64,000 bases of DNA from Eledone cirrhosa (Eukaryota). A program made the translations under genes and the position numbers. The stretch's first letter is position 1. Each line of letters opens with the position of its first letter. The stretch lies in the NCBI GenBank assembly GCA_964016885.1, contig OZ024748.1:43338001-43402000 (forward strand). Reading direction: 5' to 3'. The notes beneath the pieces were generated by a model. The model was not told where the DNA came from. It ran no database searches and saw only the letters and a list, made by a program, of their open reading frames with translations. Positions 15,289 to 53,799 of this stretch are shown in pieces.

Positions 15289-15348
15289 TTTATCTGATGA
15301 AAGCGCACCATAGTTTGCCTTGGTGGCCCTTGAAATATGTATAATGAA
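15289..15348 (+). ncRNA. Minimal type I hammerhead ribozyme motif (Penelope-like pLTR type)
   Basis: UUUAU-CUGAUGA-[aag..cacca...uggug..cuu]-GAAA-UAUGUA-UA-AUGAA, then AATAAA. Homolog at 51624-51682(-). Confidence 0.75.
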
Positions 15349-16129
15349 ATAAATATGGTTTTATAAATATAGTTTCCATTTGTTAATATATTGTATATAT
15401 AAAATATATATATATACATTTTATACCATAAGAGGTACGCGTGCACACATACATACATACATATACATGATGCAACAGGAAATATGCTATGTGCTTATGT
15501 CTGCTTCCTTCAACTCTGCCTTTATAACAGGTTTCAACTTTCACAGTAAATAGGGTGTTTTCACTACTTAGCGACATTGAAGGTCATATTCATATTACTA
15601 CACTACAGATAATTCTAAACTATTAAATAAAAACTTCTGAAGCTTACACAATGGAACATTGTAAGCACGTGAAAAACAACTAGCTTTTTGTTTGTTGTAC
15701 AAGACACTTTTGTTTAAAACTTTTTTTTTTAAATGCGTGTGTATGTATGTGTGTATGAGTATATATATATATATATATATATATATATACATATATATAT
15801 ATTTAAAAGGTCAACGTGTTCCAGCATAAATATATATATAAATATGTATGTATATAGGTGTGTGTGTGTATTATATATTTAAAAGATCAACAAGTTCCGG
15901 TATTTTGAATATGTCAATAAGGCAGCATAATATATAGATATATAATGGTTTCTGTTTTAGGCACATCATTATCATCATCACCATTTAACGTTAATTTTTC
16001 CACGCTACCATGAGTTAGACGAGTTGTCCTGTTGTATGCAATGTCAGGTCAGGTGACCTTGTCTTGCACATACAGAACTGATTTTGGCTTGGTTTCTACA
16101 GCTGGAAGCCCTTCTTAGTGCCAACCTCA

Positions 16130-16800
16130 TTTACAGTGTGTACTGAGTGCTTTTTGTCATGTCACCTACATGACCACTTTACAGTGTGTACTGAGTGCTT
16201 TTTGTCATGTCACCTACATGACCACTTTACAGTGTGTACTGAGTGCTTTTTGTCGTGTCACCTACAGGACCGCTTTACAGTGTGTACTGGGTGCTTTTTG
16301 TCGTGTCACCTACAGGACCACTTTACAGTGTGTACTGGGTACTTTTTGTCATGACTCCTACATGACCACTTTACAGTGCGTACTGGGTGCTTTTTGTCGT
16401 GTCACCTACAGGACCGCTTTACAGTGTGTACTGGGTGCTTTTTGTCGTGTCACCTACAGGACCACTTTACAGTGTGTACTGGGTACTTTTTGTCATGACT
16501 CCTACAGGACCACTTTACAGTGTGTACTGGGTACTTTTTGTCATAACACCTACATGACCACTTTACAGTGCGTACTGGGTGCTTTTTGTCATGTCACCTA
16601 CACGACCGCTTTACAGTGCGTACTGGGTGCTTTTTGTCATGACTCCTACACGACCGCTTTACAGTGCGTACTGGGTGCTTTTTGTCATGACTCCTACACG
16701 ACCGCTTTACAGTGCGTACTGGGTGCTTTTTGTCGTGTCACCTACAGGACCACTTTACAGTGTGTACTGAGTGCTTTTTGTTGTGTCACCATCACAACCA
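16130..16800. repeat. 48-bp minisatellite (about 14 copies) expanded inside an RTE/SINE-type 3' tail
   Basis: Unit tttacagtgtgtactgggtgctttttgtcgtgtcacctacaggaccac. It is preceded by the tail sequence gtttctacagctggaagcccttc and catcatcat-ttaacg on the minus-oriented element. Confidence 0.92.
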
Positions 16801-18558
16801 CTTTAGGGGAGGGGAAAGTCTATCTATGTGTCATCAACCCTGAAAAATTCATTGCTAGGGACATAGGCCATCCCCCAAGCTGCACTATCTTTGGTGATCC
16901 AGAGTCATTCGTGGTCCTAATTTTTCAATTTTCTGTGGTGACCACAGCAGAGTTATCCAAGGTGGATTTAGCCAGAGTGTAACAATTGCTATATCTCTGC
17001 ACTTAACTCAGCACATTGGTGCTATTGATGCTGCAGCTACTTCTGTCTGTGTGTGTGTGAGTCTCTGTGTGTGTGTGGTTGATAATTGCTAAGTGGTCTG
17101 CGGAGACACACCCACACTCACATATCATCATCATCATCATTTTATGTCTGCTTTTCCCTGCTTGCAAGGATATATATATATATATATACACACACCAACA
17201 TCTCACACTTGTGTATATATATATATATATATATACAAGTGTATATATATATAATTATACATACAAGTGTATATATATATACACAAGTGTGTATATATAT
17301 ATATATATATACACAAGTGTGTATATATATATATATATATACACAAGTGTATATATATATATATATACACAAGTGTATATATATATATATATATACAAGT
17401 GTATATATATATATATATATATATATATACACACACACACACACCAACATCTCACACTTGTATATAAATATATATATATATATATATATATATATATATA
17501 TATATATATATATACAAGTGTGTATATATATATACAAGTGTATATCTATACTATAAAGCCGACATTGTTATACACGCTGACAAGGTTCCACCTGGTGAGC
17601 ATCGTAGACACTTCAATGCTCCAGCTGTCCTTGCTGGTCACACCGGGGGAAAGTGTGATATAGTCATCCGACTTGGTGATGAAGGTCTAAAAAAAATTCC
17701 CGATACCAACCAAGCATACGATGGCCTTCAGTACCCACTTCTGTACCAACAGGGGAGCATGGATACCACTGGCTGCTTCGTCAAGTTGGATCTAATGGTG
17801 AGCCAACCAACAAGAAAGTCTCTGCGATGGATTTTTATGCCTTTCCCCTGATGCTTCGTTCAAACAACTTCGATCATCTTCACCCAGCACGCGACCTATT
17901 TCACCAAGATAGAGAGTGAACGCCTTGCTTATACTGCAAGGCATCAGAAGGAACTTTGAAGCTGACAACTAGGCTCACCTTCGTGATGCTGTGAATAATG
18001 ATGCCAGACATGGCCACGAGATTGGTAAGTTGGTTATCCTCCCTTCCACCTTCGCAGGCAGTCCTTGATATATTCATGAGAAGACTCAAGATGCAATGAC
18101 ATACGTGAGGCACTATGGCTGTCCCAACCTTTTCATCATTTTCACATGCAACCCAAGGTGTATGAAACAACTGGTGAACTCCTTCCTGGCCAAACGTCTG
18201 CTCACCGTCATGACCTTATTGCAAGAGTATTCCGTCTGAAAGTTATGAAGCTGACGTCAATCCCAACGAAGTAAGAAATCTTTGGATCAACACGATGTGA
18301 TATGTGCACCATTGAGTGGCAGAAACGAGGACTTCCCCATGCCCACATTCTAATCTGGCTAATCGAGAAAATCCGTCCTTCCCGGATTGACTCATTGATC
18401 CTGCAGAACTCCCTGATCCTGCAGAAGACCAGAGGCTGTTCGACATTATCACAGCTCAAATGGTTCATGGTCCATGTGGGGAATTCAACCCAAGGTCACC
18501 TTGCATGGAAGATGGAAAATGCAGCAAGAAGTTTCCACGCAAATTCCTAAAGGAGACA

Positions 18559-19134
18559 CAAACAGAGCATGATGGCTACCCACTGTATAGGAGAAACAGG
18601 GCATGATGGCTACCCACTGTATAGGAGAAACAGGGCATGATGGCTACCCACTGTATAGGAGAAACAGACCATGATGGCTACCCACTGTATAGGAGAAACA
18701 GGGCAGGATGGCTACCCACTGTATAGGAGAACAGGGCATGATGGCTACCCATTGTATAGGAGAAACAGGGCAGGATGGCTACCCACTGTATAGGAGAACA
18801 GGGCATGATGGCTACCCACTGTATAGGAGAAACAGGGCAGGATGGCTACCCACTGTATAGGAGAAACAGGGCAGGATGGCTACCCACTGTATAGGAGAAC
18901 AGGGCATGATGGCTACCCATTGTATAGGAGAAACAGGGCATGATGGCTACCCATTGTATAGGAGAAACAGGGCATGATGGCTACCCATTGTATAGGAGAA
19001 ACAGGGCATGATGGCTACCCACTGTATAGGAGAAACAGGGCATGATGGCTACCCACTGTATAGGAGAAACAGGGCATGATGGCTACCCACTGTATAGGAG
19101 AAACAGGGCATGATGGCTACCCACTGTATAGGAG
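18559..19134. repeat. 34/33-bp tandem array (about 17 copies) inside the Helitron Rep coding region
   Basis: Unit gagaaacagggcatgatggctacccactgtatag, covering the DGYPLYR codons. Confidence 0.95.
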
Positions 19135-52213: not shown

Positions 52214-52615
52214 CGGTTTCAACACACGTTTTCAGATAAAGAACCTTGCTAAACAAATTCAGAAACGAAATATATATATATATATACTTTATAAAGTATA
52301 TATATATATATATATATATATATATATATATATATATATATATATATATATATATATATATATATATATATATATATACTTTATAAAGTATATATATATA
52401 TATATATAGTATATATGTATAGTATATATATATATATATATATATATATATATATATATATATATATATATCACATAAGAAGAATCAGTGTTGCGACGAA
52501 TAAAATTTATTAGACATATTACATCCATCGAGTGCTCAAACGACCTACCGCTTACGGGCGCTTTAAGCATCCCACACCAATTATATATATATATATATAT
52601 ATATATATATATATA

Positions 52616-52869
52616 ATTATAATGAAATGACAGGAGGCTGGATTTGTGTAAATCCTTGAAAGGTTTATTATACTATGATCATTTCAATGACCGGGTTCCG
52701 TATGAATCCGGTGATATCATCAGGTATTCGAAATATAATACGTGAATGTAATAGATAAAATCCATGGGGCTGAAAATCGAGGACCCGAAGGCGACCGCTA
52801 TTCTGTTCCTTCAACCTCAGCCGGCCGCCCTCGAGCGACAAATCCAGCCTCCTGTCATTTCATTATAAT
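52616..52869 (-). mobile_element. Short non-coding element with 32-bp terminal inverted repeat and an internal hammerhead
   Basis: attataatgaaatgacaggaggctggatttgt ... acaaatccagcctcctgtcatttcattataat. Homologous to 46918-47078. Confidence 0.75.
52670..52727 (-). ncRNA. Minimal hammerhead ribozyme motif
   Basis: AUAC-CUGAUGA-uauc-ACCGG...CCGGU-cauu-GAAA-UGAUCA-UA-GUAU-AAUAAA. Confidence 0.8.
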
Positions 52870-53019
52870 ATTTAACTCCGTAATAGCACCACCAACTACA
52901 AAAACAAAGACGGTTGAACTGCTTTACGTTGAGTACTCTCTATATTATTGCATTACGATTGACCATACGGAATAGACCAGCTCTATACAGTGGTGAACCT
53001 CAAACCTGAATATATATAT

Positions 53020-53358
53020 ATAGGAACGAGTAGGACCCCGACGGCTGAGTTCAAGCCGTTTCGACCAGCTAATTCTGGACTAGAATTCTGAGTCCAGAAT
53101 TAGCCGTCGAAACGGCTTGAGCTCAGCCGTCGGGGTCCTACTCATTCCTATTACCCACTCTACTACCCTAAGTATTGAGTACTTTGGTGCGTTATGGTCC
53201 ATCTGGTTCCTTACCACATTTCCTTCGTTATATATATATATATATATATATATATATGTGTGTGTGTGTGTGTGTGTGTGTGTGTGTGTGTGTGTGTGTG
53301 TGTACCAGGTGGACCATAATGCACCAAAGTACTCTATACTTAGGGTAGTAGAATGGGT
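53020..53358. repeat. Two adjacent inverted repeats (53020-53151; 53153-53207 with 53304-53358)
   Basis: Arm pairing is visible. The first shares sequence with 45369-45425; the second contains the gtattgagtac tail motif also seen at 47182 and 49192. Confidence 0.8.
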
Positions 53359-53799
53359 CCTGACTCTTTTCCTATATGTATATATATATTAAAAAAAAGA
53401 AGATCGGAGGCCATATTCAGTTGATTCAGGTTTATTTCAAACTCCGTTATACACTGAGGACTATCAGTTATGATAGCCCGAGCTCTTCAGGCGGCAAAAC
53501 CTAAAAATAAACATTGAAAGTTCATAAGAAACCTTTAAATTTGGAAAAATCCAATAATTTCCCCGAAAAGGGATTTTCTTTTCATGATATAAGGGGCCGG
53601 CCGAACACGTGGTGTTGTTTCTTCGACGGCCTTTCACATTTAAAGGTATCTTAGGAAATTTCAATGTTTAGGTCAATCCATACTTCCATTCTATTTCTCA
53701 GAATTAGAAGCTTTGACCACTTGATAGAATTCAGGCCCAGTAATGTAATCACTCTGTAATTGTAAACATCTTGTATCACTATCATTCAGGTTTTGATTT

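Follow-up and report, generated by a model that had tools for sequence, protein, structure and literature searches.

Minimal hammerhead ribozymes are known from the Penelope-like elements (PLEs) of metazoans, where they occur as solitary motifs and as opposite-strand pairs and have low activity in vitro (Cervera and de la Pena 2014, PMC4209133). PLEs of the Hydra clade, Hydra-1_Obim among them, carry a hammerhead near the 3' end, encode a C-terminal GIY-YIG endonuclease and target (TA)n (Craig et al. 2021, PMC8557442). In vitro reconstitution has been achieved for just one PLE, the Poseidon element PAc of Anolis, and there cleavage is not required and is protein-assisted (Frangieh et al. 2024, PMC11167929). 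Here we analyze a 64,000-nt stretch of the Eledone cirrhosa genome (the window, G000:C8:43338001-43402000, part of a 3.0-Gb genome; positions below are those of the window unless a locus is named). An initial annotation had described eight hammerhead motifs and a degraded ninth in it and had read them as non-autonomous mini-elements, Penelope-type or retrozyme-like, that prefer (TA)n. We conclude that the motifs are very probably the hammerhead-bearing 3' terminal repeats of at least seven PLE families, and that target-primed reverse transcription is the likely route by which their 5'-truncated copies entered (TA)n.

The nine sites fall into seven dispersed repeat families, which we call A to G; truncated copies of a further family, H, lie among them. 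As in the published minimal hammerheads, we find a type I core with a long stem II, a short stem I and an extra base after A9, a short stem III that is a palindrome in A, C, D and G, the U3-A8 variant, many families in one genome, mostly solitary truncated copies, and opposite-strand pairs 100-700 bp apart (PMC4209133). The differences are that the families here are new, that stem III is non-palindromic in B, E and F, and that H joins the U3-A8 variant with a stable 6-bp stem III.

Hammerhead cores in the window

All eight CUGANGA...GAAA cores of the initial annotation are present where it had placed them, starting at 15294, 38470 and 46974 on the plus strand and at 39259, 49286, 51677, 51989 and 52723 on the minus strand. 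The ninth site was confirmed as well: its core at 53490 (minus strand) has lost the GAAA through a short deletion, and the core is intact in 21 of the 30 family G loci that we fetched.

As a chance control, the window was dinucleotide-shuffled 200 times per block size, with three block sizes. The bare core matched 15 times in the window and 4.3-4.9 times per shuffle. Requiring at least 4 bp of stem I and at least 3 bp of stem II left 7 matches against 0.09-0.14 in the shuffles (maximum 2), and adding a fully palindromic stem III left 5 against 0.01, so the stem-filtered motifs stand about 50-fold or more above the dinucleotide shuffles. One match present in each stem-filtered set, at 5426, falls within a Helitron helicase frame and is probably chance. 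We dismissed the bare cores at 5426, 8496, 23927, 23935, 45828, 49842 and 58346 as chance matches that lie within other repeats or have no stems. The loose stem test is passed by six of the eight sites; 46974 fails a crude count of stem II and passes a fold-based scan, and the contiguous stem I at 49286 is only 1 bp. Rfam recognized no hammerhead in the window at E<=1. The hammerhead cores are real.

Stems I and II covary. Among 26 hammerheads of related subfamilies, 90.1% of cells were paired and 18 of 21 pairs had changed on both sides, a level reached by 0-1 of 500 shuffles, with slid structures pairing at only 31-51%; these counts are inflated because the descriptor that picked most of the rows itself required pairing. 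We read the motifs as minimal type I hammerheads, with self-cleavage predicted only. Two window copies depart from this form, since the E copy fails stem I and the G copy is without GAAA.

Stem III had been described as short or palindromic. The palindrome holds for A, D, G and most C copies and fails for F, E and most of the close B copies, where there are central mismatches (19 of the 20 closest in B). C has ACGT in 19 of 25 intact cores, and the ACAT of the window copy would be consistent with CpG decay. The F stem is AGAACT. The ACAGUUGU seen at 49250 is private: within the four commonest classes, a single one of the 16 intact E cores carries it, the commonest E form being ACAGTTCT. For B, 19 of the 20 closest copies have ATGTTCAT and not ATGATCAT. 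AATAAA does lie within 60 nt downstream at six of the eight sites, as claimed; the element itself ends 100-200 nt further on.

Copies elsewhere in the genome

Every site belongs to a multicopy family whose other copies retain the core. Each family has more than 1,300 first-look candidates in the genome (A 1888, B 1689, C 4775, D 2764, E 1696, G 1338, and 39386 for the F endonuclease protein), which are not copy numbers; in the DNA searches the best 40 candidates per search were scored. Besides G, the core was intact in 30 of 30 fetched loci for A, 20 of 20 for B, 25 of 30 for C, 20 of 30 for D and 16 of 30 for E. The two proposed pairs of diverged homologs, 15289 with 51624 (family A) and 46970 with 52670 (family B), were borne out. 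In the flanks of the fetched loci, which are a biased sample, the hammerhead descriptor matched 258 times in 1.13 Mb, and many further families are among these matches.

Linkage to Penelope-like elements

Frame and profile searches found no PLE frame within the window, in agreement with the initial annotation. Elsewhere in the genome four of the families (A, C, D and F) join PLE frames. One open reading frame (ORF) carrying a PLE-type reverse transcriptase (RT) and a GIY-YIG endonuclease was seen for A, C and F, and for D at its endonuclease end; in all four the hammerhead lies in the terminal repeat, sense to the ORF. Linkage to the frames, together with ends at (TA)n, upholds the earlier assignment to PLEs and to insertion in (TA)n. 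It also overturns the claim of non-autonomous mini-elements for five of the nine sites, which are truncated ends of elements encoding RT and GIY-YIG. For family B (two sites) the claim holds as to non-autonomy and fails as to size, the unit being about 2 kb.

In family F the hammerhead follows the end of the ORF by about 180-215 nt, in the sense direction, in 27 of 30 ORF loci, and in locus L007 the GIY-YIG frame ends about 180 nt ahead of the same hammerhead as in the window. Two stop-free frames of 1257 and 1167 amino acids contain RT motifs, a CX4CxxC linker and GIY-YIG, and their Atlas neighbors score 0.96-0.98 and include HTH_animal/GIY-YIG clusters. We also observed a long, low-complexity insert rich in Asn, Thr and His before the RT in these frames (L051:2221-5991, minus strand, and L052:2188-5688, plus strand). 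The best 150 matches to the F endonuclease are 94-100% identical, which suggests a recent burst. At least six of 30 family C loci (L349, L354, L358, L360, L361 and L375) have decayed frames for RT and endonuclease some 0.5 kb upstream. [quoted passage not shown] Like PLEs of the Neptune clade, C and F combine RT, a CX4CxxC linker, a C-terminal GIY-YIG, a 3' hammerhead and microsatellite sites; F differs in its long Asn/Thr-rich N-terminal insert, and the label Neptune-like, read from motifs and not from a tree, may also cover Nematis.

Family A has a 1.6-kb 3' untranslated region (UTR), and upstream of it a frame with RWR, DKT, CxCX5C (read as CNCRNKSNC), CxxC and CxH (read as CRH), which are the marks of the Hydra clade (RW[KR], DKT, CxCX5C linker, CxxC, CxH, no CCHH; PMC8557442). 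In L278 we see, in order, an inverted arm, an 823-bp direct repeat, the ORF with frameshifts, the 3' UTR and the direct repeat again; the two hammerheads are 4204 bp apart, in a unit that includes a nested repeat of about 0.2 kb. At 4.0-4.2 kb, A is longer than the published Hydra-clade elements, which are generally below 3 kb, a trend and not a strict rule (PMC8557442). Partial tandems that give pseudo-long terminal repeats (pseudo-LTRs) were seen in A (L278) and in B (20 of 30 loci). We had considered an ORF antisense to the hammerhead in A or B and rejected it because the T-rich stretch is the 3' UTR. In family D, a Hydra-type endonuclease is followed by a colinear 3' UTR in L330, with the same link in L334; its linker is a CxCX3C variant, unlike the CxCX5C of Hydra-clade elements (PMC8557442), and CxxC and CxH are present. 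From these motifs A and D look Hydra-type and C and F Neptune-like. The U.U at the base of stem II in B and E is also as in Hydra-clade PLEs (PMC8557442).

A separate Hydra-type family (L309, minus strand, about 3400-6100, with short copies in L011 and L207) ends in a motif that resembles a hammerhead but has, in several copies, CAGAAGA in place of CUGANGA at the core; the ribozyme may be dead, or a variant, and yet go on spreading.

Several points weigh against reading the sites as PLE ends. Pfam names none of the PLE frames and a PDB search with them found no relative, which is why the clade calls rest on motifs. The ORF link of D comes from two loci only; for E, G and H, upstream walks from the best candidates reached no parent ORF. 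Since the best 40 candidates per search were scored, B could have a rare coding parent that escaped notice. Monomer folds are no more stable than those of shuffles at eight of the nine sites, and the inflation of the covariation counts also belongs here.

Insertion anatomy and proposed mechanism

The copies have fixed 3' ends, 100-200 nt past the ribozyme, that meet (TA)n directly, as the initial annotation had noted, or (CA)n. The 5' ends are scattered and inverted arms are frequent. We considered termination of the copies at the cleavage site and rejected it: among 106 incidental copies, a single one has its end within 3 nt of the predicted cut, a count that excludes same-family fetched loci, copies below 80% identity, copies at locus edges and four that ran past the reference, and to which D contributed no usable copy and G one. 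Since nearly all copies cross the predicted cut, the template was likely uncut (or re-ligated) RNA.

From this anatomy and from published work (PMC11167929, PMC8557442) we would expect the element protein to nick AT-rich DNA and to begin reverse transcription within a tandem transcript, at a point 100-200 nt downstream from the hammerhead. Reverse transcription would usually halt or fold back within a few hundred bases, at hairpins, leaving ribozyme-bearing stubs; such early stops would explain why the ribozyme is in many copies and the ORF in few. Cleavage itself is likely a weak side step, assisted by dimers or by protein. PAc Poseidon is similar in that it starts reverse transcription internally, downstream of its hammerhead, and has AT-rich targets; its main template, uncut RNA, fits the anatomy here (PMC11167929). 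It belongs to another clade, and its start site is in an AC-rich stem-loop inside the ORF, whereas the A elements end just before the ORF. A further paper (PMC13282606) makes no mention of hammerhead or ribozyme in the part available.

Family B, a non-coding unit

Followed over about 2 kb, copies of B run into the 3' end of B itself. Among 30 loci at the 5' end of the unit, 18 are directly preceded by B's 3' terminal repeat and two more have a nested insert in between; three are preceded by an inverted piece of B itself and seven by unrelated flank. A PLE frame in register upstream was found in none of these 30 loci. The unit measured 1780-2081 bp in three tandems. In 10 units the longest open frame was 92-128 amino acids, and none of them matched the local PLE protein profiles better than E 0.04. 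B is a non-autonomous, non-coding unit of 1.8-2.1 kb that occurs in partial tandems. An internal duplication of about 290 bp in the B body (L271:7896-8452) is present in some units and single in others, and one of its repeats carries a copy of the bulged stem-loop described in the next section.

B resembles Chlamys elements such as MRC1 (PMC8557442) and non-LTR retrozymes (PMC7229834; bioRxiv 10.64898/2026.07.22.740005) in being non-coding, with pseudo-LTRs, partial tandems and a type I hammerhead. It differs from both in its size of about 2 kb, its dispersed and heavily 5'-truncated copies, the lack of a short tandem array, and its Hydra-type end signals.

A second conserved structure

Downstream of the hammerhead we found a second motif, a bulged stem-loop built of an RCUC/GAGY helix of 4 bp and a variable helix stacked on it, with a UY bulge of 2 nt and RC on the 3' side. 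Families A, B, D, E, G and H have it. In the largest class of each family it lies 49-85 nt before the element end in 36 of 39 copies of A, 16 of 33 of B (many of which end earlier), 12 of 16 of D and 27 of 32 of E, and it is absent from the largest classes of C (0 of 28) and F (0 of 29). A weaker second copy follows just past the end point in A and B tandems, ahead of A's start codon. The window copies are at 47182-47203 and 51552-51573 on the minus strand and at 52875-52936 and 53157-53182 on the plus strand.

A strict descriptor of the stem-loop matched four times in the window, where shuffles gave 0.24, and 257 times in 1.32 Mb of loci, where they gave 1-4. With classes anchored on sequence alone, the inner helix reached at least 3 bp in nine of 15 against 1.2 expected, and the outer pair alternates between A-U and G-C; the other six, including the B junction copy, fail the inner-helix test. 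Rfam gave no significant match in the part of L278 that holds the hammerhead and the two copies of the stem-loop. We inspected by eye the six Hydra consensuses of File S7 of PMC8557442 and found the stem-loop exact in three (Hydra-2_Amil, Hydra-2_Ajap and Hydra-1_Ajap, the last with two copies, in the 5' UTR), as a variant in two and absent from one. In the main text of that paper, 'stem-loop' and 'hairpin' have no matches and the bulged structure is unmentioned. Literature searches, which did not extend to subscription papers and Repbase, turned up no paper on either it or family B.

Both where the stem-loop lies and its retention in B, which is non-coding, suggest that it may be a signal bound by protein when the template is chosen. 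We tentatively propose, knowing that this could well be wrong, that in Hydra-type PLEs it is an undescribed structure that may act as a cis signal, binding the RT-endonuclease 50-85 nt before the start of reverse transcription (and often again after it). Hydra-type proteins that recognize it near the start site would then copy B, and perhaps E, G and H, in trans, and the signal would be conserved in coral and sea cucumber elements. Alternatively, it may have a role in translation or transcription.

Families E, G and H

The longest copies of E2 end in a microsatellite with unrelated flanks, and the 5' extension of G is common to two loci only. We assigned Hydra-like frames near copies of E, G and C (L170, L257, L183, L095 and others) to other families. 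In the complete copies of H (L241, L242 and L264) the core is UUGANAA (U3-A8) and the 6-bp stem III is closed by a palindromic loop; we predict that this hammerhead works as a monomer. The stem II region is where 25 of 38 incidental copies of H end.

Copies in the window

The older A copy (15268-15401, plus strand) is a 5'-truncated 3' end of a Hydra-type subfamily, 84% identical to the natural copy in L278; its hammerhead spans 15286-15351, with a predicted cut after 15343. The C copy (38363-38549, plus strand; hammerhead 38466-38501, with CpG-type changes) is split by a nested repeat, and its tail picks up again at 39002-39053. D follows on the minus strand (39042-39371, hammerhead 39206-39264), and its inverted arm at 39271-39371 pairs back over the hammerhead. 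A truncated B copy (46917-47086, plus strand; hammerhead 46970-47027) has (TA)n on both sides. E is present at 49192-49291 (minus strand), where the hammerhead core, 49250-49291, has a broken stem I. The young A copy (51484-51753, minus strand; hammerhead 51621-51685) is 97% identical to L278, contains the stem-loop at 51552 and ends in (TA)n. F (51781-52213, minus strand; hammerhead 51951-51993) has a 191-bp inverted arm at 52023-52213 that pairs back over the hammerhead. The older B copy (52608-53022) consists of a hammerhead arm at 52608-52776 (minus strand, motif 52670-52727) and an inverted 3' arm at 52843-53022 (plus strand) with the stem-loop at 52875. The 3' end of G, with its damaged core, is at 53373-53670 (minus strand).

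The initial annotation had overlooked further truncated copies. One belongs to E (47114-47308, minus strand), is folded back in the stem II loop, and has lost the CUGAUGA half while keeping the stem-loop at 47182. A relative of H at 45368-45646 comprises two short truncated copies, an inverted pair around (TA)n in which the first half of the core is absent, and H itself is present at 53020-53358 as truncated inverted copies hinged in stem II, with the stem-loop at 53157. The D and F hammerheads are paired over by their own arms, those of C, E and G are damaged, and most window copies are likely inert.

Other explanations

It is very improbable that every one of the motifs is a non-autonomous mini-element in its own right, or a non-LTR retrozyme spreading via small self-cleaved circular RNAs. 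Window copies of only 100-430 bp, a window free of any PLE ORF, a non-coding B, and E and G for which no parent was found all fit this reading, and retrozymes have been traced to PLE terminal repeats in a 2026 preprint (bioRxiv 10.64898/2026.07.22.740005). The joining of four families to PLE frames refutes it for A, C, D and F. The 5' ends are scattered and not fixed, and the B unit of 1.78-2.08 kb exceeds the 51-972 bp range of retrozymes in the same preprint. Nor do the tandem repeats of the window include a short head-to-tail hammerhead array (units of about 50-1000 nt), and the retrozyme-like part of the initial annotation is wrong for most of the sites.

A role in the host is less probable still. 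The window contains a minus-strand gene, likely an extended-synaptotagmin, whose coding part begins with an exon at 50020-50383 and which has an exon for the SMP domain at about 27410-27540 (Pfam SMP_LBD, E 8e-4, below the Pfam cut-off in significance), and the ribozymes might be kept to cut or regulate its pre-mRNA. Several copies do lie in its 22-kb intron, and the intact cores at 39259 and 49286 are on the strand of the gene. However, the core at 39259 lies under its own inverted arm of 101 bp, the one at 49286 has a stem I of 1 bp, and the copies show ordinary family-level divergence in families with thousands of first-look candidates.

That the motifs are chance matches in AT-rich repetitive DNA we consider next to impossible: bare cores do arise 4-5 times per shuffle (those at 5426, 8496, 23927 and 58346 are examples) and Rfam detects none, but the excess of stem-filtered matches, the covarying stems and the retention of the core in other copies of multicopy families refute it for the nine sites.

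Surrounding gene and other repeats

Several PLE ends are located in the first intron of the likely extended-synaptotagmin gene (about 27543-50019), and 1-3 kb upstream of its start codon PLEs form a dense cluster. Near-perfect inverted repeats of about 60-190 bp occur at 39141-39371, 51799-52213, 45204-45785, 22309-22654 and 27081-27231; those within the gene could form long double-stranded RNA in the pre-mRNA and are possible substrates for A-to-I editing. The other repeats of the window are many microsatellites, long interspersed elements, Helitron pieces and one LTR element, and this landscape resembles an octopod's. We observed two decayed Helitron Rep/helicase regions (2455-7106 and 17600-21516, plus strand), a decayed non-LTR element (54810-57323, plus strand) with a Hero/R2-like look, and a Gypsy-type gag-pol region with frameshifts (59537-63450, minus strand).

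Significance

In its main result the locus is ordinary, as PLE ends with minimal hammerheads have already been published, including a Hydra element from octopus. For annotation, it means that abundant short repeats of this kind should be classed as PLE ends, which Rfam and Pfam miss here. The new details are the non-coding 2-kb family B and the second conserved hairpin. B is a clear case of a long non-autonomous Hydra-type element, intermediate between full PLEs and short retrozymes, and the stem-loop offers a precise mutational target for how PLE proteins choose their template and start site.

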